Assembly (NCBI GenBank): GCA_964349485.1
Contig: CAYGGE010000002.1
Location: 72,060 to 136,059 of the forward strand
Reading direction: 5' to 3'
From: an uncultured Candidatus Saccharibacteria bacterium
GTDB taxonomy: Bacteria; Patescibacteriota; UBA1384; CAYGGE01
DNA length: 64,000 bases
Position 1 is the first letter of the stretch, and every line of letters begins with the position of its first letter. Positions 10,869 through 53,586 of this stretch are shown piece after piece. The notes beneath the pieces are model-generated. The model worked only from the letters and a program-made list of their open reading frames with translations. It ran no database searches and was not told where the DNA came from. Position numbers and translations under genes: made by a program.

Positions 10869-11945
10869 ATGTCAAGGTCTAAGTTGAAACCTTCTAGCGA
10901 GCAAACGGCCGTAATTGGTCTACATACGCCAAAAATTGGCTCAAAGACGCTGTTTGCTTTGCGTTCGCTTTATGGGTCATATGAAAAGGCATATCAAGCA
11001 TATCAGATGAAGAAATTGTCTAATCTGACCGATGCTCAAAAGATAAGTCTTGCTGAACATCAACCGCTCCTGCCCCGGATCGTTCAACTAATTGACCAGT
11101 ACGATATTAAAATTGTTCTCTACGGTGACCCAGACTACCCAAGCTTATTGTCTGAAATGACTGATCCACCAGCTGTGCTTTATGTACGAGGGTCGATAGG
11201 GGAGCATCAACGGATTGCTATCGTTGGTTCTCGTCGATCGACGCCATATGGTCTACGGGCAGCAACCGATCTTGCCAGCGAGGCAGCAAAATCTGGTATA
11301 AACGTTGTTTCTGGTTTGGCTCTCGGGATCGATGCCGCCGCACACAAAGGTGCCTTGGTAGCTGGTGGACAGACTATCGGTATACTCGCCTGTGGCGTTG
11401 AACAAATTTACCCAGCAAGTCATCGACAGCTGGCATTGCAGACGATCAAACAAGGTGGGGCTTTAGTCAGTGAATTTCCGCTCCTTACACCACCTTACCG
11501 AGGTAACTTTCTGGTTCGTAATCGTCTTATCGCGGCGTTTACCCCGCTAACAGTGGTAATTGAGGCGGCGCCAGCAAGTGGGGCACTGGTGACCGCTCGG
11601 TTAGCCCTCGACTACAACCGAGACGTTTGGGCCTTACCTGGTGACATTTACCGCGAGAGTTCAATTGGTCCTAATCAACTCATTGCCAGCGGTGCGACAC
11701 CGTTTATCGGCGCAGGTCAGTTAGCTGACTACTTTAACGTTGAATCGGCTCCTGCCATCGTACACGAAGTTACCCCGGATGATCAACTTCTACTATCAGC
11801 CATTAGTAAAACAGGGACACATATCGACGACTTAGCAGAGGCACTATCCCTTGACATTGCGGCCACGAACAGTAGAGTGATACTGTTAGAGCTAAAAGGT
11901 CTCGTCGTGGATAGTGGAGCTGGAATCTTCAGACGAGTGATTTAA
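10869..11945 (+). CDS. dprA: DNA processing protein DprA/Smf
   Basis: IAIVGSRRSTPYG, GIDAAAH, and Rossmann-like core. The smf-topA adjacency is widely conserved. Confidence 0.85.
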   Translation: MSRSKLKPSSEQTAVIGLHTPKIGSKTLFALRSLYGSYEKAYQAYQMKKLSNLTDAQKISLAEHQPLLPRIVQLIDQYDIKIVLYGDPDYPSLLSEMTDPPAVLYVRGSIGEHQRIAIVGSRRSTPYGLRAATDLASEAAKSGINVVSGLALGIDAAAHKGALVAGGQTIGILACGVEQIYPASHRQLALQTIKQGGALVSEFPLLTPPYRGNFLVRNRLIAAFTPLTVVIEAAPASGALVTARLALDYNRDVWALPGDIYRESSIGPNQLIASGATPFIGAGQLADYFNVESAPAIVHEVTPDDQLLLSAISKTGTHIDDLAEALSLDIAATNSRVILLELKGLVVDSGAGIFRRVI

Positions 11946-17424: not shown

Positions 17425-18399
17425 ATGCGCCCCAAATGGTTCGTTTTGCTGGTCTGGGGGATGTTTTTTCTTCTGATCAGCGTTGCGCCGGTGCATGCAG
17501 ATGTTGCCGGTGGCGGATTTACCGCTATTCGTCGGGAGTTCCACCGGGAGACCGGTGACTTTCGTCTGGTGGCCGAACTCTACGCGCCCGGATACCGCGA
17601 CGCCTACTGGGCGTGGCTTTCCGGGAGTGAGGAGCTTCTCAAGGCGCCGAACGTCGGTTCCGTGAAGCTCTCGTTCATCTTGGTAACCGAAGACGGTAAG
17701 CCCGTCCGATACGCCAAGTGGACGAACGATCAGCGTAAGGAGACTAAAGACTGGGAGGATCTGAAATATGGTCCTAACGGCTTTGAGCTCGACTATCCGC
17801 TCGATCGCGCCCGCCCCGGTGTCCACACGGTTCATTTCGTGGGCGGGATCAAAGATGGGCAGCGGAACTATACCAAGGTCTGGCTGCTCGTCGATCTAAC
17901 AATCGGTGGCCGCAAGAAGACCAGGTATCAGACCGAGGCCCTCCAGTTCATGGTTTACGACCTCCCCGTTGGGCGCAATCGCGTCGACCCACAGCTGCTT
18001 GTTAACTCCCAAGAGGAGATGGCAGCCGGTGGATCGTCGCTGATCGGCCCGGCAATCGAGGAAGACGAACCTGAACCGGCTGACAAGAAAGGAAAGCGTC
18101 AGCCGACAGATACGCCGTCACGACAGGAGCGATCCAACCTGATCCTCAGTTTCAACGGCTTTACCTCCTGGGCGCATGTCGTCTGGGACACAGGTAAGGA
18201 ATCGTGGTGCGAGGTCAGCGGTACGAAGACTGTCACAGTGCCTCGCGATGCTCGGGCGGTCGACGTCTACATTGTCAATTCCGATGGGGAACAGGGCGGC
18301 TACCGTATCAAGAATAGCGGAGCTCTCCGGAGCTTCGATGTTCCGACGGATGGTCGCCTGCTCACTATCACTGTCAATCGCACCCGCCGCGGCGGGTAG
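17425..18399 (+). CDS. Secreted hypothetical protein encoded in the GC-rich island
   Basis: Signal peptide ending VHADVAGG. Codon usage is GC-rich. No recognisable family. Confidence 0.55.
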   Translation: MRPKWFVLLVWGMFFLLISVAPVHADVAGGGFTAIRREFHRETGDFRLVAELYAPGYRDAYWAWLSGSEELLKAPNVGSVKLSFILVTEDGKPVRYAKWTNDQRKETKDWEDLKYGPNGFELDYPLDRARPGVHTVHFVGGIKDGQRNYTKVWLLVDLTIGGRKKTRYQTEALQFMVYDLPVGRNRVDPQLLVNSQEEMAAGGSSLIGPAIEEDEPEPADKKGKRQPTDTPSRQERSNLILSFNGFTSWAHVVWDTGKESWCEVSGTKTVTVPRDARAVDVYIVNSDGEQGGYRIKNSGALRSFDVPTDGRLLTITVNRTRRGG

Positions 18400-18405
18400 A
18401 AGGAT

Positions 18406-19734
18406 ATGGGAAAGAAAATGAAGCGCCTTTTATGGTTGCTTTCCCTCCTGCTTGCCGCGGGAGGTGTCTGTACACCGGTGCAGGCAGAGGACTTGGCGCC
18501 ACGCCTCGACGAAATAAGGTGGCGCCTCGCTGGTTATGTCTCAGCAGGGGCGCTTCAGCCTCACGAACCGGCAATCATCGAAGAGGAGGTGGTGAATAAG
18601 GGCTACACTATCTCAACGATACCAACGGGTACTGCGACGCCGAACTGGTGCACCCCCCGTAAGGGTGCCCGAGCCTTCCAGTACAAGCCGGGAACCTACC
18701 GTACGCCCTATCCGATCCAGGTCGCAGTCTTCGACGACAAGCGGCTGGTATCGGTACGGGCATTCATGGTCGGTTCCAAGGGATGTTTCAACCTCGTCGG
18801 TTGGACCTCACCAGTAGCCGCTCCTGCTCCACCGCCTCCCTGCAAGGGTGAGGTGGAGATCTGCAAGAAGCTTCGGGACGGGAGAGGCGAGCTGGCCAAC
18901 CACCAGTTTCGCCTCCTCGGCCCGAACGGGTTCGACGCAGTGCTCATTACCGACGCCAGCGGCGCTGCCAAGAAGGGCGATCTTTCCCTCGGGGAATACA
19001 CCCTTCTTGAAGTTCCACGCGAACACTACAAGCGCGTTGAACCGCAGATGCCGTACCGCTTCACTCTGTCGCGCGAGCGCCAGAAGGAGGTGGTGATGGT
19101 AGTCAACGAGTACTGCCCGCCAGTTGTGCAGCCCCCTCCACCGCCTCCCTGCAAGGGTGAGGTGGAGATCTGCAAGAAGCTTCGGGACGGGAGAGGCGAG
19201 CTGGCCAACCACCAGTTTCGCCTCCTCGGCCCGAACGGGTTCGACGCAGTGCTCATTACCGACGCCAGCGGCGCTGCCAAGAAGGGCGATCTTTCCCTCG
19301 GGGAATACACCCTTCTTGAAGTTCCACGCGAACACTACAAGCGCGTTGAACCGCAGATGCCGTACCGCTTCACTCTGTCGCGCGAGCGCCAGAAGGAGGT
19401 GGTGATGGTAGTCAACGAGTACTGCCCGCCTCCTGCGCCGCAACTACCTGATTTCGAGGGCACCAGCACGGTGCCAGAAATTCCGGTAGTAGTGGAGGCA
19501 CCCGCTCCTCCCGCAAGAGAGAAGAGCGCCTACCGGACCGGCCGACCTAGCAAGACGGTCGATCGGCAGGTTGTCGCTGGCGGTGGTGGATACAGTCGAG
19601 CCACTGAACGACGGGTGATCAGTCGGCACAACCATCATTTCATCCATCGGCACCGTCCTCACAGTAAAGGGATCAAAACCCCTGACGACGATGAAGATGG
19701 TGACACCCCTACGGGGCGGTTGCCGCCCCGTTAA
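18406..19734 (+). CDS. Secreted protein with two identical Cna-B/SpaA-like (prealbumin-fold) domains and a basic His-rich tail
   Basis: Signal peptide present. The domain has the pattern FRLLGPNGFDAVLITDASGAAKKGDLSLGEYTLLEVPREHYK (F.L...G...T.ASG...L..G.Y.L.E...P..Y), duplicated exactly. A PPPPC motif precedes each copy. Confidence 0.6.
   Translation: MGKKMKRLLWLLSLLLAAGGVCTPVQAEDLAPRLDEIRWRLAGYVSAGALQPHEPAIIEEEVVNKGYTISTIPTGTATPNWCTPRKGARAFQYKPGTYRTPYPIQVAVFDDKRLVSVRAFMVGSKGCFNLVGWTSPVAAPAPPPPCKGEVEICKKLRDGRGELANHQFRLLGPNGFDAVLITDASGAAKKGDLSLGEYTLLEVPREHYKRVEPQMPYRFTLSRERQKEVVMVVNEYCPPVVQPPPPPPCKGEVEICKKLRDGRGELANHQFRLLGPNGFDAVLITDASGAAKKGDLSLGEYTLLEVPREHYKRVEPQMPYRFTLSRERQKEVVMVVNEYCPPPAPQLPDFEGTSTVPEIPVVVEAPAPPAREKSAYRTGRPSKTVDRQVVAGGGGYSRATERRVISRHNHHFIHRHRPHSKGIKTPDDDEDGDTPTGRLPPR
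18827..19429 (+). repeat. Exact tandem direct repeat: 2 x 294 nt with a 309-nt period, inside the CDS
   Basis: 18827-19120 and 19136-19429 read identically nucleotide for nucleotide. They are separated by a 15-nt divergent linker. Confidence 0.85.
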
Positions 19735-19967
19735 ATTGCTGAAAGGCAGAACATAGCTGAGGGCCGGAGGGTCCGTTGCCATGGGGGAGAGAGATTCTTT
19801 CCCCCTGGCCAGTCCATCTTTCGAAGCAAACGAGAAGTTTGATCTCTTGACTCCGCTCGAGACGACAAAGTCGATTTCCGTTTTCTCCGAAAGAGATTAA
19901 TCGCTCATGTCACGTAGTGGTAAACTACCAAACATAGCAATAAATATTCATAACCAAAGAAGGAAAA

Positions 19968-22772
19968 ATGCACATGATGCAATTTCTCAATAAGACTAAA
20001 TCGGTCATCTACCTGCTTCTTGCTGCAGTCCTTTTTGGCCAGGCAATAAGTTATGCCAATGTCACGAAAGCAAGTATTGACGGTCCCGTTCAAGTGTTGA
20101 CCGCCGTTCAAAACTATACTCATGACACGGCTATGTTGCCATCGGTTAACGCACAAGTGGATGAACAGGTGCAATTCCGGGTTTTCGTCAAGAATACGTC
20201 CGGCGATGAACGATTAAATGGGGTTCGCGTTCGAACCGAGCTTGATCCATTCTTAGAGTACGTTGCAGGTTCAACAAAGTTGGAGTTCCACACCGCCCAA
20301 TTCGATGATATGCCGGATGGTATTGTTAGTGGCGGACTAGATTTACCTGAGTTTCCTCGACATAAGACAGCCTACTTATACTTCCTAGCCAAGGTTAAGA
20401 ATGGCGCTTCCGGTACTTTGACACAGATATCGCACGTGACTTACCAAAACTTCCACGCCACCGATACTACAGCTCGTGTCGTCGTTGGTGGCAGCAATGA
20501 AGTCGTGCCGCCCCGTATGCTTGTCGATACGGCTGTAATCAATTTGGGAACCAACCCGAACCCGAGCGATCCGAGCGCTGATTGGCGTGATCGGGTGATG
20601 GCAGAAGTTAATGATACGGTGGGTATCTCTATTGAAGTGCAAAATGACCATCCGACTGCTACTAATTCTCGACTTAAAGAGGTCACGGTTAAGGCTAGCA
20701 AGAACGATATCAACGGCGGATTCCGGGTTCGAGGTACAGCCTCGGCTGATAACCACGAAGATCGAATCAACGATGCATTTATCGATACAAACGCCAATAT
20801 CTTGAACTATGTGAGTGGTTCGGCGCGTACATACTTTTACGATGCCTCCGGAACTCTTGTCTCTCTGCCCCTTGGTGACGCAGTTATGAGTAATGGGGTC
20901 AGTGTTGGGGATATCGATGCCGGTCGTCTGGCTAAAGCCAAATACGTCTACTTCGAGATGCGCTTAGCCGATCGACAGACTAGCGGTACGATACAGATCG
21001 AAAAGCACTTGTACAAAAATGGTGGCTGGGTACAAAATCCTGATCCGGATAAACAGGTCGACTTCGTCTTTACGTTACCGAGTGGCACTGAACTAACTGT
21101 TCGAACCGATAATCATGGTTCAGCGGTCATGGATAACCTGCCCTTTGGTACCTATACTGTTCGTGAGATTGTCCCAGTCAGTTATGAGTTGGTTGAACTA
21201 ACTCCATCACAATTCACTCTTGACGAAGGTAATCTTGTTCAACAGGTAGTGGCACAGAATAAACAGCTCATCGTTACAGATGACAAAGGTAACCTGACCA
21301 TTGTCAAATTCATCGACACAGACGGTGATGGGGTTCAGGATGCAAATGAAGGTCCTCAAGCTGGTGTAACCTTTACAGTGAGTGGTCCAAACAACTATTC
21401 GGTCACCCGGGTAACCAATGCCGATGGTCATATTGAATTGACCGACTTGGCGCTTGGAGCCTACACGGCTACTGAAACGGTTCCTTTGGGCTATACGGTG
21501 ACAACAGCAAACCCACAAAATAGTGAAGTCATAGCTAACCAAACCCGAACCTTAGCCTTTGGTAATAAACCAATTGTGGTTACACCTAAGGGTAATCTTC
21601 AGATCATTAAGTTCGAAGATAAGAACGCCAACCGGGTCCAAGACGCTGGTGAACCATTCATGGCCGACGTGGTCTTTACCGTAACCGGTCCAAACGGTTA
21701 CAGCGTGACGCGTAACACAGCGGACAATGGTCAAATCAATCTAACTGATCTGCCTTTTGGTTCATACGAGGTGACTGAACAAGTGCCAAGTGGTTTCCGT
21801 GTGACTACCGACAACCCGCAAACTAGTGTGGTGGAAGCTAACGACGCGGCTGTTGTTCGATTTGGTAATCAACAGATCCCTACTGAAACGCACAAGGGTA
21901 GCCTGAAGATTATCAAGTTTGAAGATAAAAATGGTAATCGTGAATTCGATTCAGACGAACCGACTATGAAAGCTATCGCCTTTAAGATTACCGGACCTGC
22001 CGGTTTCAGTCTAACTAAACTAACCGATGATCACGGGGTTATCTTACTAGAGAACCTTGACCTCGGTACCTACACCGCGACTGAAAATGTTCCTGAAGGA
22101 TATCGATCAACCACCGATAACCCACAGAGTGGCCAAGTAACTGTGAACGTCATGAAGGTCTTGCGGTTTGGTAACCAGAAGGTAGTCATCGTTACGCCGA
22201 CCCCAACTCCTACGTCTCCTAAATTGCAACTGACTAAGTACGTCGGTAACGCCAGTCGTAACGAAGCGACCGACAAGACGGCCACTAATGCTTCGGCTGG
22301 TCAGACAGTTAGTTGGAGACTACTAGTTAAGAGTTTGGGTGATGTTACACTCAAACAACTAAAACTCGAAGACACCTTACCGGCTAACGTCAAACTAGTT
22401 GGCGATATTGTCATTACAAGAGACGGTCAAAAAGCCAAATTGCTTGGCTTAACTCGCGACGCGGTATTGATAGGTGACTTAGCTAAAGGTCAAGAAGTAA
22501 CGATTGAGTTCCAAACTGTGATCAGCGCTGATGTGGCTTGTCACAACGAGCTAACGAATAACGCAGCCGCTTATGCTGATAACCACGATCGGGTCTACAG
22601 CCAAGCCAAGGTCTTGACCGAGTGTGTGATAGCCGATCCGGCCCAACAGGCGCTCGTCCCAACCGGTGCAAACGAAGCCCTACTGTCCTTGGTTCTTTCT
22701 GGACTAAGTGTCATGGGCTACACCTACACAAGACAGCGAAAAACTCTCGACAAGCTTATTGCTCGATTCTGA
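19968..22772 (+). CDS. Cell-surface protein with a sortase-type sorting signal (LVPTG), four SdrD-B/Cna-B-like repeats and DUF11-like end domains
   Basis: Signal peptide present. There are four repeats of about 100 aa with the pattern (K)G(N/S)L.I.KF.D.(N/D)G...D..E.....V.F.VTGP.G(Y/F)S.T..T.D.G.I.L.DL..G.Y...E.VP.G(Y/F). The C-terminus is LVPTG, then a hydrophobic stretch, then RQRK. Confidence 0.7.
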   Translation: MHMMQFLNKTKSVIYLLLAAVLFGQAISYANVTKASIDGPVQVLTAVQNYTHDTAMLPSVNAQVDEQVQFRVFVKNTSGDERLNGVRVRTELDPFLEYVAGSTKLEFHTAQFDDMPDGIVSGGLDLPEFPRHKTAYLYFLAKVKNGASGTLTQISHVTYQNFHATDTTARVVVGGSNEVVPPRMLVDTAVINLGTNPNPSDPSADWRDRVMAEVNDTVGISIEVQNDHPTATNSRLKEVTVKASKNDINGGFRVRGTASADNHEDRINDAFIDTNANILNYVSGSARTYFYDASGTLVSLPLGDAVMSNGVSVGDIDAGRLAKAKYVYFEMRLADRQTSGTIQIEKHLYKNGGWVQNPDPDKQVDFVFTLPSGTELTVRTDNHGSAVMDNLPFGTYTVREIVPVSYELVELTPSQFTLDEGNLVQQVVAQNKQLIVTDDKGNLTIVKFIDTDGDGVQDANEGPQAGVTFTVSGPNNYSVTRVTNADGHIELTDLALGAYTATETVPLGYTVTTANPQNSEVIANQTRTLAFGNKPIVVTPKGNLQIIKFEDKNANRVQDAGEPFMADVVFTVTGPNGYSVTRNTADNGQINLTDLPFGSYEVTEQVPSGFRVTTDNPQTSVVEANDAAVVRFGNQQIPTETHKGSLKIIKFEDKNGNREFDSDEPTMKAIAFKITGPAGFSLTKLTDDHGVILLENLDLGTYTATENVPEGYRSTTDNPQSGQVTVNVMKVLRFGNQKVVIVTPTPTPTSPKLQLTKYVGNASRNEATDKTATNASAGQTVSWRLLVKSLGDVTLKQLKLEDTLPANVKLVGDIVITRDGQKAKLLGLTRDAVLIGDLAKGQEVTIEFQTVISADVACHNELTNNAAAYADNHDRVYSQAKVLTECVIADPAQQALVPTGANEALLSLVLSGLSVMGYTYTRQRKTLDKLIARF

Positions 22773-27714: not shown

Positions 27715-28947
27715 ATGCTCACATTTACTATTAGGGAAAAAGACCAGCAGACGCTAGCCCGTCGGGCTGAGATAGAGTTGGCTCACGGAACTGTTCAAAC
27801 CCCGGCTTTTATGCCGGTGGGAACGGTTGGGGTAGTCAAAACACTTCTTCCTAGCGAGGTGTGGGATCTTGGGGCTGAGATCACTCTTGGCAATACTTAC
27901 CATCTATATTTAAGACCTGGTCATGAGGCTATAAAAGTCTTTGGCGGTATCCAATCGTGGAATAAATGGCAAGGTCCAGTTCTGACTGATTCAGGTGGTT
28001 ACCAGGTATTTAGTTTAGGCAATAAAGCCCTGACCGGTGTTTCTGGCATGCAAGAGGCGGCTCATAAAGAAGGTTTTTACGATGCCGATACGATGCAGGC
28101 GGGCAATGTCCGAATTACCGAAGAAGGGGCCGAGTTTACCTCTCATATCGATGGTAGCAAGCATAAATTTACTCCCGAAAATGTCGTCGATACCCAAATT
28201 GCCCTCGGTTCGGATATTATGATGGTGCTCGATGAGTGCGTTGAGTACCCGGCAACAGAGGATCGAGCCAAGAGCTCTATGGAGCGAACTCATCGCTGGG
28301 CCAAACGAGCGATCGATCATTTTGAACAGTTGCAGGTAGGGGATAGCGACATTGTGAAGAAGCATAATCTATTTGGTATCGCTCAAGGCTCAACATTTTC
28401 AGAATTGCGTAAAGAATCAGTGGAATATATTGCCTCCCTACCGTTTGATGGTATCGCCGTTGGCGGTGTCTCAGTGGGTGAAGGCAAAGAGCACATGTAT
28501 CAAGTCATGGATTGGACCGGTCCTTTACTTCAACCAGAAAGACCACATTACCTCATGGGAATAGGGGAGCCCGAAGACCTAATTAGAGCCGTAGCTAATG
28601 GCTATGATATGTTTGATTGTGTACTGCCAACTCGTCTGGGCCGATACGGCGTAATCTGGCACGTGAATCGAGATAGCGCCGGTCGGTATGAGAGCTTTGA
28701 AAAGTGGGATCTCCGCGGAGCTCGGTTTAGGACCGACCAAGCAGTAATCGATCACACCTGCGACTGTCCAACCTGTAAGGCTGGCTATTCCCGTGCCTAC
28801 ATTGCTCACTTACTACGTGAGAGAGAAGTCACAGGTATCCGTCTTACTACCGTTCATAATCTACGGACCATCTTGCGTTTGATGGAAGATATTCGAGTAG
28901 CCCTAGATGGTGGAATATTTTCTACCAAATTTAAGCCTTTCATTTGA
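27715..28947 (+). CDS. tgt: Queuine tRNA-ribosyltransferase
   Basis: VQTPAFMPVGT, LTDSGGYQV, and the zinc site CDCPTCKAGYSRAYIAHL. Confidence 0.85.
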   Translation: MLTFTIREKDQQTLARRAEIELAHGTVQTPAFMPVGTVGVVKTLLPSEVWDLGAEITLGNTYHLYLRPGHEAIKVFGGIQSWNKWQGPVLTDSGGYQVFSLGNKALTGVSGMQEAAHKEGFYDADTMQAGNVRITEEGAEFTSHIDGSKHKFTPENVVDTQIALGSDIMMVLDECVEYPATEDRAKSSMERTHRWAKRAIDHFEQLQVGDSDIVKKHNLFGIAQGSTFSELRKESVEYIASLPFDGIAVGGVSVGEGKEHMYQVMDWTGPLLQPERPHYLMGIGEPEDLIRAVANGYDMFDCVLPTRLGRYGVIWHVNRDSAGRYESFEKWDLRGARFRTDQAVIDHTCDCPTCKAGYSRAYIAHLLREREVTGIRLTTVHNLRTILRLMEDIRVALDGGIFSTKFKPFI

Positions 28948-29040: not shown

Positions 29041-29403
29041 ATGGCTGGAACTTTGCCTCAACCCCACGTGCCAGGTGAGCCTGACCACATTTTAGGAGTA
29101 CGTACAGAGGCGGTTGTTCCTCCTCTCACTCCAGAGGTTCGAACAGTTGTGGTACCCACTCAGGTTGGAACGGAAGCGAGACTTGTAGCACCTACTGTTC
29201 CGATATCACTAGAGAACACTATGCCCGTAGGAGTAGACCCGCTTGCGGCGCAGATCGATACTGCTGTCCACGAGCTGACATCTGCTCCTCAGGGAGCTAC
29301 GCTTACAGAAATGTCGATTGCCGAGGGTCTAGAGATAGCTACTGAGCAAGGTAGGACTGACGCAGAGGCCGGTGAAGCAGTTGAGCGGGCTGCAAGTTAC
29401 TAG
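29041..29403 (+). CDS. Hypothetical small Pro/Val/Thr-rich protein
   Basis: 120 aa starting from the ATG with GGAGG 7 nt upstream. The longer 28951 ORF lacks an RBS. No family recognised. Confidence 0.4.
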   Translation: MAGTLPQPHVPGEPDHILGVRTEAVVPPLTPEVRTVVVPTQVGTEARLVAPTVPISLENTMPVGVDPLAAQIDTAVHELTSAPQGATLTEMSIAEGLEIATEQGRTDAEAGEAVERAASY

Positions 29404-29418
29404 CACTAGAGGAGGGGA

Positions 29419-31890
29419 GTGGAACAGGATATCTACACAACTGCCCAGCCGTCGTTGATTGGCCCGGTTATCCTGGTCCTTTTAGCTTTAGCCGTTACCT
29501 TCTTGCTGGTAGCCTATTTCTGGTATTTACGTCGACTCAAATTTAAACGAGCGGCCAACTGGGTCATGCTCTTGGTCTCTGTCCCTAAGGAATCGAGCCA
29601 CGGCAAAGACGAACAGCAGAAGCCTCAGGAATGGCGCGAAGTGGTCTCGGTAGCAGAACAGATGTTTGCCAGCTTTGGTTCGCTTTACAGTACTCATCCA
29701 ATAGATTTAATCTTTGGTCAGACTCATCTATCGTTCGAAATTGTGGTTAGAAATAATGAGATATTATTTTACGTCGGCTGTTCTCGGGCGAATCGTGAAG
29801 TAGTCGAGAAGACTATCTATGCCTTCTATCCCGCTGCAATCATTGAAGAGAGCAGAGAGTTTCGGATTTTTGATAAATCATTCCAAGTTCGCAGCGCCAC
29901 ACTTCGTCTGGCGAAATACTATGTTTACCCAATCAAGAGCTATAAAACCCTTGAGGCGGACCCGTTAAACAACATCACCAATGCACTATCCAAAATGGGG
30001 GAGCAGGGGAGAGCAACAATCCAGTTTATTATCCGTCCGGCTAGTGATCGGTGGCGCTTGCGGGTTGAAGAGGCAAGCCATCTGATTGGCGTGGGTCAAG
30101 GCTATGATGTCCATCACAACTCTACCATCCGCATGTTTCGGGAAATAAAACGAGTCATCAGCCCGCCTAAAGAAGAAGCCTCAACAAACCGAATGCGGAC
30201 GCCGATTCAAGAAGAAAAACTAAAAAATCTTTCTGAAAAAGCTAGTACCTCAGGCTTTCATGTAGTTAGTCGCATAATCGCCGCCGCCCCGACAGCCGCC
30301 GAGGCTGATGCCTATCTTGCCAATATTGTTGCCGCCTTCTCCCAATTCCAAAACCCAGCCGCTAATGGCTTTAAGTATGAAAAGATGAGTGGCGAACGGT
30401 GGTTTGTAACCGACTTCGTCCTTCGAGCCTTCACCGGACGCTGGATGATCCTTAATACCGAAGAACTCGGCTCGTTGTTTCATTTCCCAAATCAATTTGT
30501 CGATACTCCCAATATTCGATGGTTGCGTGCTAAACGGGCTCCGGCACCGCCCAGCCTGCCCAAAGAGGGGCTCTATATTGGCGATAACATGTTTAGGGGC
30601 GATAAGACGAATATTTTTCTTAAGAAAGAAGACCGTCGTCGACACCTTTATATGATTGGTATGACTGGCACGGGTAAAACGACATTGTTTGAAAACATGA
30701 TCCTACAGGACATCAAAGCTGGCCACGGTATCTGCTATATCGATCCCCATGGTGATACAGCAGAAGGTTTGCTGTCTAAGATACCTCGTGAGAGAGCCGA
30801 AGATGTCATCTACTTTGATCCAGGCGATCTTGACCGACCGTTCGGATTGAACATGCTTGAGTGGAAGACGGCCGAAGAAAAGGACTTTTTGGTTCAAGAG
30901 ATTATTCAAATCTTCTACAAACTGTTTGACCCGAACCAAACTGGTATTGTCGGACCACAATTTGAACACTGGTTGCGTAACGCCGCCTTGACGCTTATGG
31001 ATTGGCCTGAAGGTGGAACCTTAATTGAGATCCCTCGGCTATTCACTGACGATGCTTATCGTGACTTGCGAGTCGAGAAACTTCAAGATCCTGTCGTAAA
31101 AGCCTTCTGGACACAACAGATGGCCAAAACTGCCGACTTCCATAAGTCGGAGATGTTCAATTACTTCATCTCCAAATTCGGTCGGTTTATGACAAACACG
31201 ATGATGCGCAATATTATCGGCCAACCCAAGGGTTCGTTCGATATTGCCGAAGCGATGAATAGTGGGAAGATCCTCATCGTCAACCTTTCCAAAGGTAAGA
31301 TGGGTGAGGTCAACGCAAACTTGATTGGCATGATATTAGTCGCCAAGATTTACACCGCCGCCATGGCTCGGCACAATATTCCTGAAGAACAACGTAAAGA
31401 CTTCTATCTATACGTCGACGAGTTCCAGAATCTGGCGACCGATACATTTGCCTCAATTCTCTCCGAGGCTCGAAAATATAGACTCGCTTTGTCTATAACC
31501 AACCAGTACATCTCCCAGCTCCAAGAGCCAATCCGTGATGCAATCATTGGGAACGTAGGAACTATCATCTCCTACCGAATCGGAGTGCCTGACGCTGAGT
31601 TCTTAGAGAAAGAGTTTCAGCCAGTCTTTAATTTTCACGACCTGAATAATCTTGAACGCTACAACGCGTACATTAAATTGCTAGTCGATAATTCACCGAG
31701 CCGACCGTTTTCGGTGAAAATTAATAAAGATGATACACCGTCGATTCCCGAGATTGGCCACGGTGTCCGTCAGTTATCTCGGTTACGCTACGGTCGCGAT
31801 CGCGGTCTCGTCGACGCCGAAATCTACGAACGGACCAAGATTATGGACGCACCGGCCGCCAAGGGGACCGATCCGCTATCACCAAGTTAG
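29419..31890 (+). CDS. Membrane-anchored FtsK-HerA superfamily ATPase, closest to type IV coupling proteins (VirD4/TraG/TrwB-like 'T4SS DNA-binding domain' proteins); paralog 1
   Basis: N-terminal TM helix. An unassigned domain of about 350 aa. Walker A GMTGTGKTT, then YIDPHGD, Walker B FYLYVDEFQN, and ARKYRLALSITNQYISQL...IGNVGTIISYRIG. Confidence 0.6.
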   Translation: MEQDIYTTAQPSLIGPVILVLLALAVTFLLVAYFWYLRRLKFKRAANWVMLLVSVPKESSHGKDEQQKPQEWREVVSVAEQMFASFGSLYSTHPIDLIFGQTHLSFEIVVRNNEILFYVGCSRANREVVEKTIYAFYPAAIIEESREFRIFDKSFQVRSATLRLAKYYVYPIKSYKTLEADPLNNITNALSKMGEQGRATIQFIIRPASDRWRLRVEEASHLIGVGQGYDVHHNSTIRMFREIKRVISPPKEEASTNRMRTPIQEEKLKNLSEKASTSGFHVVSRIIAAAPTAAEADAYLANIVAAFSQFQNPAANGFKYEKMSGERWFVTDFVLRAFTGRWMILNTEELGSLFHFPNQFVDTPNIRWLRAKRAPAPPSLPKEGLYIGDNMFRGDKTNIFLKKEDRRRHLYMIGMTGTGKTTLFENMILQDIKAGHGICYIDPHGDTAEGLLSKIPRERAEDVIYFDPGDLDRPFGLNMLEWKTAEEKDFLVQEIIQIFYKLFDPNQTGIVGPQFEHWLRNAALTLMDWPEGGTLIEIPRLFTDDAYRDLRVEKLQDPVVKAFWTQQMAKTADFHKSEMFNYFISKFGRFMTNTMMRNIIGQPKGSFDIAEAMNSGKILIVNLSKGKMGEVNANLIGMILVAKIYTAAMARHNIPEEQRKDFYLYVDEFQNLATDTFASILSEARKYRLALSITNQYISQLQEPIRDAIIGNVGTIISYRIGVPDAEFLEKEFQPVFNFHDLNNLERYNAYIKLLVDNSPSRPFSVKINKDDTPSIPEIGHGVRQLSRLRYGRDRGLVDAEIYERTKIMDAPAAKGTDPLSPS

Positions 31891-31961
31891 ATGTAATAAG
31901 AGTACCGTTCCTAACTGATTTATGGTATAGTACACTGTGATGTAAAAAGGACAACGAAGCC

Positions 31962-34900
31962 ATGGATTTCTTTCTCTTTCTTGTACGAGTGCTGGTTTAT
32001 CTGACCCTGATTGTAGGCCCGGTAGCTATCATTTATATTGTCATCAAGATTCGTGAGACCTCAAAAACGATCGAAGCCGTGACCAGCAAAACTAATACGT
32101 TGCTACGTATTTTAGTCCCGAAACAGAACGAGAAGACACCTCAAGCCGCCCAAGAAATGTTTGCGGCGATTCATGGTATCTATCGAGCTGATCAGACAGT
32201 CCAAGATCATCTCTCTTTTGAACTTGCGGCGAGGGATCAGTATATCCAATTTTTTGTGCATGTACCGAGCGACCTTAAGGATTATGTCGAGGGTCAAATC
32301 TACGCTCAATATCCAACTGTCGAAATTAGCGAGGTTTCTGACTATACCGAGATCGATCTGGCCAATTGGTCAGTGGCTGCTGCTGAACTGGTCTTAACTA
32401 AGCCAGACATCTTTCCAATCAAAACCTACCAGAACTTTACCGTTGATCCATTGGCGGCGGTTACCGGAGTGCTCTCAAAAATTGAAGAAGGTGAGCAGAT
32501 TTGGGTTCAGATCTTAACTCGGCCGATTCCTGACACCTGGCAAGCGAAAACCCTTCAGTACGTCAAGATGATCGAGAGTGGCAAGAAGCCGAATGACGGT
32601 AAGTTAACTATCGGTAAAATTCTCAAGGGAACAGCCGGTGTAGCTGTCGAATTTGCCCGTACGGCGGCTGGTGGACCAATTGTTGAGGGCGAAAAAAAAG
32701 AAGCGGTTAAGCCAGCACTCCCAGGGCCAGTTAGTGAAGGCTTACGAGCGGCTGAGGCAAAAACTACCAAACTGGGTTATGAAACCGTTATCCGACTATG
32801 TGCCATTGGGCGTGACGAAAAAGCAGCGATTGCGCGGATAAATAATCTTTATGGTGCCTTCAAGCAGTTCAATATTAGCAATATGAACGGTTTTGATTTA
32901 AGTCGAGTCTCTACCGAGAAAGATAAGATCCTGCCGGTCTTTCAGACCAGAGCATTCCCAGCACAAGGTTATATTTTTAATGTGGAAGAATTGGCTTCAA
33001 TCTTTCATCTACCGAGCGTAAGCGTTGAAACGCCTTCCATCGTTTGGGCTGGGGCGAAAAAAGGCGAACCGCCGGCTAACTTGCCCATCGAAGGTTTGGT
33101 TAACCCAGACGATGTGACCTTGTTTGCCCAAACTAATTACCGACATTTTGCTCATCGTTTTGGAATCAGAACTCCAGATCGACGCTATCATATGTACGCC
33201 GTTGGTAAGACGGGTACGGGTAAATCTACCATGTTACGTAACATGATCATCGATGATATCCAAAAGAATCGTGGTGTCTGTGTGGTTGACCCTCATGGTG
33301 ACCTCATCAACCATGTGCTTGACTACATCCCTGAGCACCGGATCAAAGATGTTGTCTACTTTAACCCAGCAGATCGTGAGCATCCGGTTGGGTTTAACCT
33401 GTTGGAATCAGTTGATCCTGATTTGCGCAGTATCGTCGCTTCTGGACTTATGAGTATTTTTACCAAACTGTGGGCCAATGTATGGTCGGCTCGTATGGAA
33501 TACATTTTGCGTAACACCGTTTTAGCTTTACTCGAGTATCCTGAAGCAACTTTACTTGAGATAATGAAGATTTTGGTGGACCCCGTCTTCCGACGCAAAG
33601 TACTCTACTATGTGAAAGACCCAGTAATACGAGACTTCTTTTTAAATGAATATGAAAAATATGAGCCGAAGTTCCGAACTGAGGCGATTGCACCACTCCA
33701 GAATAAAGTCGGACAGTTTCTTTCCTCCTCAACGATCCGCAATATTATGGGTCAGATGCACTCGACGATTGACATGCGAGAGATAATGGACAGCGGGAAG
33801 ATTCTCCTTGTTGACTTAGCGGTCGGGAAGATAGGTGAAGATAACGCGGCCTTGCTCGGTTCGATGATTATCACCAAGATCCAATTGGCGGCTATGGGAC
33901 GCGCCGACACTCCGGAAGACGAACGACGTGATTTCTATCTCTATGTTGATGAGTTTCAGAACTTTGCTACTGAGTCGTTTGCGGCAATCCTATCTGAAGC
34001 GCGCAAGTATCACCTTAATCTCATCATCACGCATCAGTACATCGCTCAGATGCCAGAAGTTGTGGCTAGTGCGGTCTTCGGCAATGTTGGAACGATCGTT
34101 GCCTTCCGGGTAGGAGCCTCAGACGCGGGCGCTTTAGCTAGAGAATTCGAACCGGTTTTTGACGCGAACGATCTAGTAAATCTCGACAATTATCAAGTCT
34201 ATCTAAAGATGGCTATCGATGCCAGAACTGCTACGCCGTTTTCAGCTCTCACACTAGCGCCATTTGTCGGCAGAAATGAACATCGTGAAACTGCGATCAA
34301 ACAGAGTATTGAAAAATATACTCGATTACGGGGCGAAGTTGAAGAAGAAATATTGACACGTAATGAGGCGAACACCGGCAAGATTGGGACGTTTAGAGAA
34401 ATTGATGGTGAGGTAGTCTATGAGGAAGAATTGAAACCGTACGAGCCGATGAACCCATTACCTAAGAGTACGACTATCGACGGAGTTGAGGTATGGAAAG
34501 TGCGCGATAAAGAAGGCAAACCGTTCTATGTTAGTCCTAGAGACTACGACGCCTTCATGGCCGATAAGGGCAAGCCATCTGATCGCGTAGGGTCAGAGCA
34601 GGGGAGTAGCGACTCGCAAAAGAGTGGCACATTAAACCATGTCGCAGGACCGCTATTACCAGCAGATAAACCGAAGTCGGCTTTAGTTCCACCGCCCAAA
34701 GTGCGAGTGATAGCGCAAGCTACGGTAAATAGAGCTTCTGAGGATCCTAATATTGTGCGACATAATAGATCACGCAATAAGGGTAGTAATCGGGGTAATC
34801 CACCAACGGGCGGTAATAATCAAGTCTCCTCTCCGTCGGTCCCAGCAAACGTAGGTCAGGGGAGTCATGACGCAAATCAGGGTGTGCTCATCGAGACAAA

Positions 34901-35093
34901 ACCTGTCCCAGCGACAGAATTAATTAAGGATACCAACCATATGTTGCCAACCATTACCGAGCCTAAGACACACGATGTAGTAGTAGCGCCCCCAAAACAG
35001 GTCGATCCAACTGTAACCATTGCCGCTAAATACAATGATCTTGACGATCCTAACGACGATCAAGGCGCTATATTGCCAATCCATGAGCTCTAA
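31962..35093 (+). CDS. Membrane-anchored T4CP/FtsK-like ATPase; paralog 2, with a C-terminal Pro/Ser/basic disordered tail of about 260 aa
   Basis: Same architecture as the upstream gene: Walker A GKTGTGKST, VVDPHGD, FYLYVDEFQNF, and ARKYHLNLIITHQYIAQM...GNVGTIVAFRVG. The N-terminal domains are alignable (SFEIVV.../SFELAA..., DPLNNITNALSKM/DPLAAVTGVLSKI). Confidence 0.6.
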   Translation: MDFFLFLVRVLVYLTLIVGPVAIIYIVIKIRETSKTIEAVTSKTNTLLRILVPKQNEKTPQAAQEMFAAIHGIYRADQTVQDHLSFELAARDQYIQFFVHVPSDLKDYVEGQIYAQYPTVEISEVSDYTEIDLANWSVAAAELVLTKPDIFPIKTYQNFTVDPLAAVTGVLSKIEEGEQIWVQILTRPIPDTWQAKTLQYVKMIESGKKPNDGKLTIGKILKGTAGVAVEFARTAAGGPIVEGEKKEAVKPALPGPVSEGLRAAEAKTTKLGYETVIRLCAIGRDEKAAIARINNLYGAFKQFNISNMNGFDLSRVSTEKDKILPVFQTRAFPAQGYIFNVEELASIFHLPSVSVETPSIVWAGAKKGEPPANLPIEGLVNPDDVTLFAQTNYRHFAHRFGIRTPDRRYHMYAVGKTGTGKSTMLRNMIIDDIQKNRGVCVVDPHGDLINHVLDYIPEHRIKDVVYFNPADREHPVGFNLLESVDPDLRSIVASGLMSIFTKLWANVWSARMEYILRNTVLALLEYPEATLLEIMKILVDPVFRRKVLYYVKDPVIRDFFLNEYEKYEPKFRTEAIAPLQNKVGQFLSSSTIRNIMGQMHSTIDMREIMDSGKILLVDLAVGKIGEDNAALLGSMIITKIQLAAMGRADTPEDERRDFYLYVDEFQNFATESFAAILSEARKYHLNLIITHQYIAQMPEVVASAVFGNVGTIVAFRVGASDAGALAREFEPVFDANDLVNLDNYQVYLKMAIDARTATPFSALTLAPFVGRNEHRETAIKQSIEKYTRLRGEVEEEILTRNEANTGKIGTFREIDGEVVYEEELKPYEPMNPLPKSTTIDGVEVWKVRDKEGKPFYVSPRDYDAFMADKGKPSDRVGSEQGSSDSQKSGTLNHVAGPLLPADKPKSALVPPPKVRVIAQATVNRASEDPNIVRHNRSRNKGSNRGNPPTGGNNQVSSPSVPANVGQGSHDANQGVLIETKPVPATELIKDTNHMLPTITEPKTHDVVVAPPKQVDPTVTIAAKYNDLDDPNDDQGAILPIHEL

Positions 35094-35858
35094 TACCGGG
35101 TAGGTTAAGTAGGGGAATTGAACCTGTCGGAACCTGTTAAAAGTAATAACAGACAGGGGAGACTGTCGAAAGAAATATTACCAATGAATAATGACTCTAA
35201 TGGGATAGACGTCGTTTAAGGGTATGAGAGATTCACTTGACGATATGCCGTACTGGCTGATATGAAGGAATATTCGATTCTATCCATAAATCCATCAGTT
35301 TTGCTTGCAGTATTGTTATACGATAGTTTACCTGCTAGCTCTTTGTGCAATCCCCTTAGCATCGGAGCACTTTCTCGTCAGTCGCACAATGTATCTTATG
35401 CGACGTAATACGGATAATAAAGTATACATTCATCTTCTACATCCTGGATTACTATTGAATTCTATAACGATCTATCTAAACGAGTTTTAGGGCTGTGATT
35501 ATAGGATAACAACGCGTACACAGTCTCAATATCTAGACTAATGACACGAACCTGAAATCGTCAAACCACTACCCCGAGACATTTATAGTATATGCTATGG
35601 CTACGACAACGTGGTTACGGCAGTATAAGCTATAATTCGTTCCACATTTGCAAATCGTATTTGATTATTAACTCTCCCCTATCATCACGGGTCCTCACTG
35701 GTCAATTCGCCTTCCAAATGAGTAGATGCCAAGCCAAAATCGCCTATTTAACGGGTTAAAAGGCATTACAATTGGCCAGGACATAACAAGGAATCATGAT
35801 ACGATAAATGTGTCACACTAGTTAAAAAAAAGAGACCTTGGTGGTTTAGAACAATACT

Positions 35859-36773
35859 TTAGGCCGCCTGTCGACGCATCAACCATTGCTGCCAAATGAC
35901 GAGCAAGGGCGTAGCGACGAAGATCGACGAGTAGGTCCCGAAACTCATACCGATAATCAGAGTAATTACAAATGGTCGTAGACTATCTCCACCGAGGAAT
36001 GCCAAGGCGATCAGTACTAAGAGTGTAGTTATTGAGGTGTTCAACGATCGATTTAAGGTTTGGGTTAAAGCCTCATTGGTAGACGACTCGAAGGCTTGTG
36101 GGGTCGCGATCGGTGTGTGGCGCATGTTTTCGCGTAAGCGATCGAACACGACAATTGTATCATGTACCGAGAAACCCATGATTGTTAGTAAGGCTGTGAT
36201 GAACAGCGCATTGACCTCGTAACCGAGATAATAACTAAGGATGGCAAATAGTCCTATGGTTACGGCGATGTCGTGAATGAGAGTAAATACGGCGACGAAC
36301 CCAAAGCGCCAACTCGAGGCAGGCCTGGGAACACTCCGAAATGAATAGGCGATATATAGGATGATCGCGATCGAGGCGATAATGACGGCCTGTATCGCCT
36401 TTTGAGTCAAATCATTCCCGACAGTCGGTCCTACACTCTCAAACCGACTGATGAGGACTTTATGCTTCTCCCATTTCTCCGGAAGTCTCCCCTCTTTTTC
36501 CTTGGTTAAGGTCTCCGTTTTTAAGATGACACCTCCATCACCAGTTACCTGGCTGGTGACATTTTCGATCCCGGTTTCCCGGAGATCTTTTTTGAGGCTC
36601 TCCAGCGCTTCGTCGCTAATCTTTTGCTCCTTACCCGTAATCTCAATCAGTGTCCCACCTGTGAAGTCGATGCCAATTTTGAGACCCCAGACACTTAGAC
36701 TGATGATCCCCGCTACGATGAACAATCCCGAGATTGAGAGCCATAGCCATTTTTTCTTGCCGAGTAATTGCAT
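35859..36773 (-). CDS. secF: Protein translocase subunit SecF
   Basis: IDFTGGTLIEI motif, then six TM helices. Confidence 0.85.
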   Translation of the reverse strand: MQLLGKKKWLWLSISGLFIVAGIISLSVWGLKIGIDFTGGTLIEITGKEQKISDEALESLKKDLRETGIENVTSQVTGDGGVILKTETLTKEKEGRLPEKWEKHKVLISRFESVGPTVGNDLTQKAIQAVIIASIAIILYIAYSFRSVPRPASSWRFGFVAVFTLIHDIAVTIGLFAILSYYLGYEVNALFITALLTIMGFSVHDTIVVFDRLRENMRHTPIATPQAFESSTNEALTQTLNRSLNTSITTLLVLIALAFLGGDSLRPFVITLIIGMSFGTYSSIFVATPLLVIWQQWLMRRQAA

Positions 36774-36784
36774 ACTAATCCTTA

Positions 36785-38047
36785 CTATCTGATGTACTTA
36801 AGGTTAAAATTCAATAATGTTCGAGTGATGGTGATAGCTGTAAACATAGAGACTAAAATACCGATGATCAGGGTGACGGCAAAGCCTCTTATTAGTCCAG
36901 ATCCGAATTCAAAGAGTATTACGGCAGTGATTATGCTAGAGACATTTGAATCGCGAATCGAGTTCCAAGCACGAGCGAACCCAGCTTCGAGGGCAGAAGC
37001 CGTGTTGCGACCTACGGCTAGCTCCTCCTTCATCCGTTCGAAGATGAGGATATTGGCATCAACGGCCATGCCGATCGAGAGGATAAACCCAGCTATTCCT
37101 GCTAGGGTCAAAGTGATTGGGACCAATTTGAATAGGCTGATCATGATTAAGGTATAGATTACCAAGGCAACAATTGCCACAAAACCTTTAAATCGATATT
37201 GGACAACCATGAAGATTCCAACTAGGATCATGCCGACGAGTCCGGCGACTAAACTGGCCTTAATTGAGGCATCGCCTAGGGTCGCTCCTATGGTTCGCTC
37301 TTCGATAACTTTAATCGAAACTGGCAGTGCCCCACCATTGATCAAAGTCGCCAGCTCTTTGGCCTCAGGTATGCTAAACTGGCCTGTGATCACGGCCTCG
37401 CCCCCGTTAATCTCGCCTTGAACTGTTGGGGCGGAGATGATCTGTCGGTCAAGTAAGATGTAGATTGGTTTACCGACGTTAACCCGAGTAGCATCGGCGA
37501 ACTTCTTGGCGCCTTCGTTATTGAATTTGAGCGATACTTGAGGAAGACCAGTACTATCATCGAAAATAACCGTTGCTTTCTTCAGGTGTTCGCCACCGAC
37601 TAAGGTCGCGGCATCGGTTGGGAACGGGTTGCCGTCAGGATCGGCCATCAGTTCGGCAATAAATCGAAGTTTGGCCGTTTGACCGATCAAGCTTTTGGCA
37701 TTATTTACGTTATCTACCCCAGCTAGCTCAACGACAACCGTATCCTTATCGCCAATTTTCCCAGTTTGGATCACTGGTTCAGACACCCCAAGGGAATTAA
37801 TACGACGCTCGATGACGTTTTTGAGGCTAACCATCGCCTCAGCCTTATCTTTAGGGGCTAAATTTTTGGTATCTGCCTCATAGACCAAATGCGTGCCGCC
37901 AGCGAGGTCAAGACCTTCATGAATTTTGAGTTCTTTATGGTAACTTTTGATCGAAATATCTGGAGCCGTTGGCCAAGTCACATAGCCGGCAAATAATACA
38001 ATCAGGACGATGACAATCAGCTTCCAGTTGATCCGTTTGCGGCGCAT
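36785..38047 (-). CDS. secD: Protein translocase subunit SecD
   Basis: SecD periplasmic domain followed by a C-terminal six-TM bundle. The start is placed at MRRKRINWKL. It lies upstream of secF. Confidence 0.85.
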   Translation of the reverse strand: MRRKRINWKLIVIVLIVLFAGYVTWPTAPDISIKSYHKELKIHEGLDLAGGTHLVYEADTKNLAPKDKAEAMVSLKNVIERRINSLGVSEPVIQTGKIGDKDTVVVELAGVDNVNNAKSLIGQTAKLRFIAELMADPDGNPFPTDAATLVGGEHLKKATVIFDDSTGLPQVSLKFNNEGAKKFADATRVNVGKPIYILLDRQIISAPTVQGEINGGEAVITGQFSIPEAKELATLINGGALPVSIKVIEERTIGATLGDASIKASLVAGLVGMILVGIFMVVQYRFKGFVAIVALVIYTLIMISLFKLVPITLTLAGIAGFILSIGMAVDANILIFERMKEELAVGRNTASALEAGFARAWNSIRDSNVSSIITAVILFEFGSGLIRGFAVTLIIGILVSMFTAITITRTLLNFNLKYIR

Positions 38048-38134
38048 AATAACTCCTAAATATGTCGTACAATATACGAATACAGAATAACCTACCATAT
38101 GTAGTATAGACTATGCTATCTAGTCAGACAAGAC

Positions 38135-53037: not shown

Positions 53038-53586
53038 TCAAGCGACCTTTACTGCGACATTTTTTGTCTTTGGAAATGAAAACAGCGAGATTTTACTCAT
53101 GGCAAGTTCGTACGCTCCAAACAAGACACCGGTGTATAACAGATCGCCGACTAATGAGTTGCGGAAAAACGGTAAGGCTAGAATATAACTTTCGAGGAGT
53201 CCGGTGAGATTTTTGGTGTACATGGGGGTAAATGCCCAGACGGCAGCGTTGGTGGCGAGGTAGAAAATAATCGAACCGGCAACTGAAGCGGCGGCAATCG
53301 TACTGAGCTTGTAGTGTCTATGAACCAGCAGACCGATCCCAAAACTTACTGCAAAGCTAACATAGACTGCGACCATGACTTCCCAGGTATAAAAACCGAT
53401 GAACGCATCTGAGATCAATAAGGCAACGATCGGGGCGAGACCGGCCAATAGTCTAGCTCTGGCCGATTGAGCTTGCCAGGCGGTAGCCCCAGCAAACAAT
53501 GCTAGTGCAGCGACGGGTGTGATATTGGCAGCATGTGGGACTAAACGACCAGCGACCACAAAAACAATGAGGAAGAGATAAAGCAT
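53038..53586 (-). CDS. Integral membrane protein (possible ECF-transporter S-component-like substrate binder)
   Basis: 182 aa with 5-6 TM helices. It lies adjacent to the DUF4430/prenyltransferase-repeat cluster. The family call is speculative. Confidence 0.35.
   Translation of the reverse strand: MLYLFLIVFVVAGRLVPHAANITPVAALALFAGATAWQAQSARARLLAGLAPIVALLISDAFIGFYTWEVMVAVYVSFAVSFGIGLLVHRHYKLSTIAAASVAGSIIFYLATNAAVWAFTPMYTKNLTGLLESYILALPFFRNSLVGDLLYTGVLFGAYELAMSKISLFSFPKTKNVAVKVA

Follow-up and report, generated by a model that had tools for sequence, protein, structure and literature searches.

What do two neighbouring membrane-anchored ATPases resembling DNA translocases do in a reduced bacterial genome, when no other secretion or conjugation gene lies near them? 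This question is raised by a 64-kb stretch of DNA on contig CAYGGE010000002.1 (assembly GCA_964349485.1) from an uncultured Candidatus Saccharibacteria bacterium; the whole stretch is called the window, and its positions serve as coordinates below. Named homologs of the two proteins, A and B, come from Candidatus Berkelbacteria, and the genome is Berkelbacteria-like. We found that the pair is real, and that it is neither a routine integrative and conjugative element (ICE) nor FtsK. A and B have the architecture of VirB4 (anchor, N-terminal domain and motor) together with a motor sequence like that of type IV coupling proteins (T4CPs). On balance, we favour, by a modest degree, the reading that they are domesticated monoderm-type coupling ATPases, probably serving the chromosomal type IV secretion system (T4SS) of their phylum, the Patescibacteria.

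The genes and their parts, with the small gene in front of them, are as follows.

29041-29403, plus strand: small gene (the orphan), 120 aa; an open reading frame (ORF) whose ATG is preceded by GGAGG, also called as 120 aa on identical contigs
29419-31890, plus strand: gene A, 823 aa, an A-type DUF8128/T4CP-like ATPase
29455-29511, plus strand: transmembrane (TM) helix of A, aa 13-31, from a hydropathy scan; a long helix 14-46 in both structure models
29557-30528, plus strand: DUF8128 domain of A, aa ~47-370, modelled with a fold like the VirB4 N-terminal domain
30571-31728, plus strand: P-loop motor of A (HerA/FtsK superfamily), aa ~385-770, with a helical insertion at aa ~485-600
30658-30684, 31402-31431 and 31468-31518, plus strand: Walker A, Walker B and the ARKY/Q sensor region of A
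31962-35093, plus strand: gene B, 1043 aa, a B-type DUF8128/T4CP-like ATPase and paralog of A
31989-32045, plus strand: TM helix of B, aa 10-28, by hydropathy
32079-33086, plus strand: DUF8128 domain of B, aa ~40-375, with the junction motif at 32985-33047
33144-34271, plus strand: P-loop motor of B, aa ~395-770; TrwB_AAD_bind matches aa 408-717 with 43.9 bits
33204-33230 and 33933-33962, plus strand: Walker A and Walker B of B
34362-35090, plus strand: C-terminal tail of B, aa ~801-1043, variable, Pro-rich and of low complexity by composition

A preliminary description of the window had reported two adjacent paralogs of 823 and 1043 aa with a shared architecture and a single N-terminal TM helix each, and all of this was borne out. 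A and B are collinear from end to end, with 279 of 816 positions identical (34%, E 8e-157), and each consists of one TM helix, a DUF8128 domain of about 320-350 aa and a P-loop motor. Gene A starts with GTG, six bases past a GGAGG Shine-Dalgarno sequence. Proteins identical to A and B occur on public contigs, where the gene calls agree with the ORFs of the window. The helix of A is followed by RRLKFKR, which predicts, by the positive-inside rule, an N-out/C-in topology with the remainder of the protein in the cytoplasm. The tail of B, described earlier as disordered, basic and rich in Pro and Ser, is indeed Pro-rich, but its net charge is -6 and it is basic only in a patch at aa 901-940. The B orthologs vary in length from 846 to 1208 aa, and the identity coverage ends at about 75% of the query. 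No informative fused domain was found in the very long members of the family (1,267-1,773 aa).

The N-terminal domain had been considered alignable between the two proteins and unassignable to any family. The first point stands, with 27% identity between the N-terminal 400 residues of A and B, but the domain can now be assigned: it is PF26449 (DUF8128) in the precomputed Pfam matches of both proteins, and likewise in all 240 listed homologs. The N-terminal alignment comprised residues 1-400 from 48 proteins of the A and B types. The AF2 models were of high quality, both for the N-terminal region (pLDDT 91.6, pTM 0.86) and for full-length A (pLDDT 90.4, pTM 0.82). When the N-terminal domain was compared using Foldseek, all 14 matches at E<=1e-3 were TrwK chains (best E 5.8e-7), with modest TM-scores of 0.35-0.41. 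On these models, DUF8128 is folded like the N-terminal domain of VirB4, a fold that is one of the marks of a VirB4 protein. In A, the domain ends in a conserved junction motif, EEL.S.FHFP....TP.I.W, at aa 348-368. Our literature search on PF26449 or DUF8128 found no paper, and the structure-based annotation of the homologs in Southlakia epibionticum covered the P-loop domain alone (PMC10633639). The DUF8128 annotation can now receive a structural assignment.

The motor had been judged nearest to T4CPs, and the family models agreed with this. All of the ATPase motifs quoted for the pair are present (GMTGTGKTT in one copy and GKTGTGKST in the other, I/VDPHGD, FYLYVDEFQN, ARKY..L.L.IT.QYI.Q and GNVGTI). 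TrwB_AAD_bind scored 32.4 bits for A and 43.9 bits for B (gathering threshold 20.5), and T4SS-DNA_transf scored 25.9 bits for A against a threshold of 20.1, with B just under it at 19.6. TraG-D_C reached 22.1 bits (threshold 22), and DUF87 was also at or above its threshold. FtsK_SpoIIIE gave just 13-14 bits and thus stayed below its threshold of 24, so the possibility that A and B are ordinary FtsK/SpoIIIE proteins did not hold. The top NCBIfam families were of the TraD/VirD4 types, with SXT_TraD at E 4e-15, although its 55 bits are far under the equivalog cut-off of 366. The VirB4 models of NCBIfam gave 17-19 bits (TIGR00929, 17.2 against a cut-off of 643.1), and neither PF03135 (CagE_TrbE_VirB) nor PF12846 (AAA_10) matched A or B in Pfam. 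Among solved structures searched by single sequence and by profile, TrwB (1e-6) and DotL (8e-6) were on top, and no VirB4 was reached.

Comparison of the motor structures gave figures of 30.2 for the C-terminal domain of Thermoanaerobacter VirB4, 29.2 for the C-domain of DptH, 27.3 for TrwB and 25.8 for HerA, and lower figures for DotL (24.0), Cagbeta (22.3), TcpA (18.1) and FtsK (17.5). From these figures, the modelled A/B motor groups with VirB4, T4CP and HerA and not with FtsK; VirB4 and T4CP are not separable here by structure alone. The Walker A Lys, the Walker B Asp-Glu and the sensor Gln did not vary among 46 A- and B-type sequences or among 15 distant B-type ones, so A and B should both be active ATPases.

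The pair was also compared with the defining features of the known families. A T4CP-type P-loop domain, with Walker A and B motifs and matches to the family models, is present, but the TM segment is not followed directly by the nucleotide-binding domain, since DUF8128 (~320 aa) intervenes. The window encodes no relaxase/Dtr module or T4SS beside the pair, whereas distant plasmid relatives do occur in such company. With respect to VirB4, the sequence signatures (TIGR00929, CagE_TrbE_VirB and AAA_10) are missing, and neither in the window nor in the related loci do the genes lie beside VirB3, VirB6 and VirB8. The features of FtsK/SpoIIIE (PF01580 above threshold, a 4TM N-terminal domain and a KOPS-reading gamma domain) and those of HerA (an N-terminal HAS-barrel domain, together with a partner of the NurA type or an effector) were likewise not found.

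The family proved to be widespread. It gave more than 7,700 word-index matches, and the DUF8128 profile matched 5,615 representatives at 50% identity (E <= 1e-3), with the domain at the N-terminus in the best 150 of these 5,615 matches. In a scan of one genome per species, more than 600 loci showed 39-53% full-length identity to A, spanning Berkelbacteria, Saccharibacteria, Microgenomates, Parcubacteria, Peregrinibacteria, Peribacteria and Gracilibacteria. A handful of matches bear names from outside this candidate phyla radiation (CPR); because the neighbours of those checked are CPR-typical, these records look like mislabelled bins. The distribution fits the count of a 2025 survey, which listed 5,713 'T4CP homologues' (VirD4-type) in 2,918 of 3,035 genomes, roughly two in each, just 148 of them near virB4 (PMC12102498). 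The A/B family has thus already been catalogued and counted under that name.

Full-length representatives fell into 43 A-type and 29 B-type proteins, with none ambiguous. Given this clean split, and because A is nearer to A-type proteins of other classes (40-53% identity) than to its neighbour B (34%), the A/B duplication is older than much of the radiation. The duplicated motor noted earlier for this reduced genome thus does consist of paralogs, but it is not a recent local duplication. Two ancient, phylum-wide lineages happen to stand together here: among the compared loci, which carry L-numbers, the tandem A-B arrangement was seen only in Berkelbacteria-like ones (L001-L009, L087, L089 and L091), and elsewhere the two types occupy separate loci.

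Relatives outside Patescibacteria were found on plasmids by tblastn at full length, with just 22-28% identity to A. In haloarchaeal plasmids, A 80-379 with its junction motif corresponds to a 376-aa 'hypothetical protein' (E 2e-17), whose gene overlaps the start of a gene for a 1007-aa T4CP-like ATPase ('TraM recognition domain') that matches A 408-804 (E 3e-36). The cluster around this gene pair contains a T4SS_pilin gene and encodes another ATPase of ~1,090 aa. On the 64-kb Bacillus subtilis plasmid NRS6116_2, the 913-aa protein WP_144625398.1 ('DUF87 domain-containing') aligns with A 104-797 (E 9e-41). Its gene is directly upstream of one for a 'replication-relaxation family protein', in a cluster that also holds TcpD, TcpE, an AAA_10 VirB4-type ATPase and a peptidoglycan hydrolase. 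The N-terminal domain alone matched 36 plasmid records, most of them from haloarchaea and some few from Bacillaceae. Therefore, the combination of a DUF8128-like domain with a T4CP-like motor holds the position of the coupling protein in genuine monoderm and archaeal transfer systems. The plasmid relatives share the DUF8128-like domain and junction motif with A, but unlike A and B they sit in conjugation or T4SS clusters, and in haloarchaea the domain is a separate gene. These relatives favour a T4SS-linked role for A and B; the published VirB4 phylogeny places the Patescibacteria T4SS inside the monoderm/archaeal group. We considered whether the B. subtilis relative could be the coupling protein of pLS20 and rejected this, as the pLS20 T4CP is a canonical VirD4 with two TM helices. 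Some B-type genes of Patescibacteria also look split, into ORFs of ~450 and ~550 aa under translation table 11 (L118, L120, L122, L124, L131, L132, L134, L139, L151, L152 and L158). Unlike the haloarchaeal split, this is probably an artefact of UGA recoding (genetic code 25).

Functional data are available for S. epibionticum from transposon sequencing (Tn-seq) at three time points (Wang et al. 2023, PMC10633639, Table S1). SEML1_0142 (1019 aa, 'TraM recognition domain', P-loop at aa 381-800) was classed as essential throughout (ES/ES/ES), and the 139-aa gene immediately upstream, SEML1_0141, was classed GD/ES/ES. SEML1_0293 (921 aa, TrwB_AAD_bind) was non-essential (NE), and SEML1_0294, which lies directly upstream of it and encodes a 349-aa 'RpoS', was essential (ES). 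In SEML1_0141-0145, the order is small gene, ATPase, 193-aa gene (minus strand), surface protein (minus strand) and gyrB; each of these genes has its match, in the same order, in the Saccharibacteria A-type loci L051, L053 and L077. Because of this five-gene synteny, together with the gene sizes, we infer that SEML1_0142 is the A-type ortholog. SEML1_0293 would be the B-type ortholog, because a 349-aa sigma-like gene precedes the ATPase, as in B-type loci. Like A and B, both proteins have the P-loop domain at aa ~380-800 and the same Pfam matches; unlike A and B, their genes are at separate loci, and the A-type protein, unlike A, has a tail of ~200 aa.

The 2025 survey called the t4cp homologue of the S. 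epibionticum strain non-essential (PMC12102498). This is true for the B-type copy only: the Tn-seq table classes a further homolog, SEML1_0142, as essential together with the small gene in front of it, which the survey does not mention. The same species encodes an essential FtsK of canonical form, complete with the 4TM, alpha, motor and gamma domains, and a canonical VirB4 within an essential T4SS cluster, and its T4SS was described without a recognisable coupling protein or relaxase (PMC10633639).

In the window, the closest flanking genes are tgt (27715-28947) and secF/secD (35859-38098), as had been noted. Scanning virtually all large ORFs in the 64 kb with Pfam models detected no relaxase, VirB4, integrase or pilus-assembly ATPase, which extends the earlier statement on the immediate surroundings to the whole window. 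What the scans did detect were ribosomal proteins, RF, Pth, tgt, secDF, aminoacyl-tRNA synthetases, glycolysis genes, TopA, RecR and an AddA-like helicase-nuclease, together with DprA (10869-11945) and, at 792-4435, minor pilins, in keeping with the type IV pilin genes reported at the start of the window. No tRNA was found in the window, and the G+C content is even across it. A scan for promoters and terminators gave no enrichment compared with shuffled sequences. The gene order RF-YbaB-Pth-L1-L10-L7/L12-TGT-small ORF-A-B-...-secF-secD is kept in three other genomes. Because it recurs where the A proteins are only 51-54% identical, the A/B locus is vertically inherited in a housekeeping context and is not a mobile element, as the preliminary description had suspected.

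The 120-aa orphan reported ahead of the pair was confirmed. It is an acidic, Pro/Val-rich protein without a TM segment, its gene ends 15 nt upstream of A, and it has no match in Pfam, NCBIfam or PADLOC. Its position has counterparts before most A-type genes of Patescibacteria: in 61 of 83 related loci, a same-strand gene lies <=200 nt upstream of the A-type gene, encoding a small, non-membrane protein (median 156 aa). We asked whether these upstream genes, including the orphan and SEML1_0141, form one family; in hhalign comparisons of five positional families, the probabilities were <=0.2%, and this was rejected. By these comparisons, their position alone is conserved.

Two further partners recur in related loci. 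One, c1/k2, is a protein of ~180-210 aa without a Pfam match, encoded after A-type genes or between A and B, with the conserved core EGVFDG..M...DG..Y.VP.NYASKSKLVEGD.LKLTI. The other, k1, is a ~350-aa Sigma70_r4 + HARE-HTH protein encoded directly upstream of the B-type gene in 28 loci.

L005 12491-13060, L008 10490-11050 and L012 11275-11907: c1/k2; also in 16 more loci
L007 12467-13504 and L008 11077-12114: k1; also in L090, L092, L096-L106 and others

Counterparts of c1/k2 and k1 are absent from the window (tblastn E>0.09). The k1 counterpart of S. epibionticum, SEML1_0294, is essential although the adjoining B-type gene is not. Other recurrent neighbours are TopA, GyrB, a convergent Xer-like tyrosine recombinase adjoining the A-type gene in 14 Microgenomates loci (L011, L018, L026, L029 and 10 others), a DivIC-family gene beside the A-type gene in 9 loci, DnaX at +2 in 14 loci, and FtsQ-MurG after the B-type gene in 6-8 loci. 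No com gene was a conserved neighbour in 165 loci.

Several other features of the window were observed. The 765-nt gap between B and secF (35094-35858) contains no ORF over 61 aa and no Rfam match; at the equivalent place, relatives have a short gene on the minus strand, for DUF1290 or for a 217-aa protein. The gap may be what is left of a decayed gene, or it may encode an RNA that is not recognised as such. The sole Rfam match in the window is a cobalamin riboswitch at 56649-56839 on the minus strand (34.8 bits against a gathering threshold of 31.5), upstream of a minus-strand gene run (53038-56488) that includes a prenyltransferase-like alpha-alpha toroid protein and DUF6580. The riboswitch and this run may form a B12-uptake module in the reduced genome. 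In L004, DUF6580 and DUF4430 are also close to the A/B pair. A local G+C peak of 0.58 (18001-20000, against ~0.47 elsewhere) falls inside two large surface-protein genes with SpaA/SdrD_B/DUF11 repeats (18406-22772).

If A and B are domesticated coupling ATPases, each may form a hexameric ring on the inner face of the membrane, and mixed A/B assemblies would be possible. The N-terminal domain may serve for docking or pairing, by analogy with VirB4. ATP hydrolysis would push DNA or unfolded protein into an envelope channel, most probably the chromosomal Patescibacteria T4SS encoded elsewhere in the genome. The variable tail of B would recruit substrates or adaptors, like the tails of T4CPs, as in TraD-TraM and DotL-IcmSW. 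The lineage would have been domesticated from a monoderm-type conjugation system, and the A-type protein would now do an essential, non-conjugative job. Several points weigh against this. The 64 kb hold no T4SS gene, and more than 97% of the family genes in the phylum are away from virB4. The family occurs in more genomes (2,918) than the 2,417 Patescibacteria genomes in which the survey detected VirB4 (PMC12102498), so some genomes may have the family without a T4SS. Neighbours in other lineages (DnaX, Xer-like recombinase, DivIC, FtsQ, TopA and GyrB) also fit a chromosome-related role, and orthology to the S. epibionticum genes is based on synteny and gene sizes, not on sequence. The link to the T4SS, the oligomeric state, the substrate and the topology are all inferred.

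Another reading is that A and B are a stand-alone membrane motor independent of the T4SS, which merely descends from a coupling protein and drives an essential process specific to Patescibacteria. The scattering of the genes away from virB4, the greater prevalence of the family than of VirB4, and partners that are not T4SS proteins (the small upstream protein, c1/k2 and the Sigma70_r4 + HARE-HTH protein) are what one would expect of such a motor. Yet six single TM helices would hardly form a conduit by themselves, and the nearest non-CPR relatives sit in T4SS or conjugation clusters, so we regard this reading as unlikely. A motor for DNA uptake in natural transformation, working with type IV pili, ComEC, ComFC and DprA in the way that VirB4-type ATPases operate in Helicobacter pylori ComB or archaeal Ced, has its attractions: Patescibacteria are naturally competent, their listed com core (ComEC, ComFC and DprA) names no motor, and the window itself encodes minor pilins and DprA. 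The B-type gene is also dispensable in Tn-seq, like the com genes, but the A-type ortholog is essential while comEC, comF and dprA are not. Faint NCBIfam matches to CedD and CedB were found, but they are limited to the P-loop, with 17-23 bits against cut-offs of 600-700. As com genes are also missing among the conserved neighbours, a DNA-uptake motor seems quite unlikely.

The remaining readings are poorly supported. An essential A-type ortholog, with an Xer-like recombinase and DivIC near A-type genes, DnaX at +2 in some loci and FtsQ-MurG after B-type genes, would also suit an FtsK-like translocase linked to chromosome segregation or division. But most of these neighbours are convergent or just happen to adjoin in genomes that are very compact, and A and B lack the 4TM, alpha and gamma domains of FtsK and score under its gathering threshold, which makes such a role improbable; as a substitute for FtsK, the pair was dropped, because a canonical essential FtsK coexists in S. 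epibionticum. PADLOC matches to mad8 (63 and 53 bits) and weak HerA matches recall anti-phage defence ATPases of the HerA, DptH or MADS-like kind. This likeness is at the level of the ATPase domain only, no nuclease, Sir2, dnd or methylase partner is nearby, and the family is near-universal and vertically inherited with an essential A-type, so a defence system was dropped as very improbable. The T4CP-like sequence and the relatives on plasmids might further suggest the remnant of an integrated conjugative element. This is contradicted by the missing relaxase, integrase, VirB4 and tRNA in the 64 kb, by the uniform G+C content and by flanking genes that are kept at 51-54% identity, and we give it hardly any credence.

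Within the T4SS-linked reading, we also tentatively consider a further-reaching version, itself rather doubtful: the DUF8128 ATPases would be a third branch of T4SS motors, in which a coupling-protein-type motor has kept an N-terminal domain of the VirB4 type, making them a living VirB4-T4CP intermediate. The A-type protein and its small upstream partner would then be the 'missing' essential coupling ATPase that feeds a macromolecule exchanged with the host, and the B-type protein, with its tail, a receptor that takes alternative substrates and can be dispensed with. Patescibacteria, which account for a large part of bacterial diversity, spend their lives attached to other microbial cells. In the sole genetically tractable species, the chromosomal T4SS is essential to this lifestyle and was reported without a coupling protein or relaxase, so the A/B pair is an obvious candidate for T4SS coupling, directly testable since one paralog and its small neighbour are essential. 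A VirB4-like N-terminal domain on a coupling-protein-like motor, fused in Patescibacteria and on a Bacillus plasmid and split in haloarchaea, is also relevant to the divergence of the two families of T4SS ATPases. Relative to the literature that we searched, the following are new: the VirB4-like fold predicted for DUF8128, the two ancient orthologous lineages, the essential A-type ortholog with its small upstream gene (which showed no sequence homology to the orphan of the window in hhalign), and the fused and split relatives in conjugation clusters.

Compared with known systems, A and B share the ATPase superfamily and a membrane anchor with FtsK/SpoIIIE, and differ in falling under the Pfam threshold and in having no 4TM, alpha or gamma domain. 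With VirD4, TrwB, TraD and DotL they have in common a HerA/FtsK-superfamily P-loop motor, an N-terminal anchor and, in B, a variable tail; the helical insert of the motor may be a further likeness. They differ from these in having a single TM helix where two are usual, a domain modelled like the VirB4 N-terminal domain between anchor and motor, no linkage to relaxase or T4SS genes, and two ancient chromosomal paralogs per genome. Unlike VirB4, which Patescibacteria possess separately in canonical form, A and B carry no VirB4 sequence signature and do not stand beside VirB3, VirB6 and VirB8. Like VirB4/TrwK of R388 and the Gram-positive VirB4 proteins, they join an N-terminal domain to a C-terminal RecA-like ATPase, and their covalent TM helix recalls the VirB3-VirB4 fusions.

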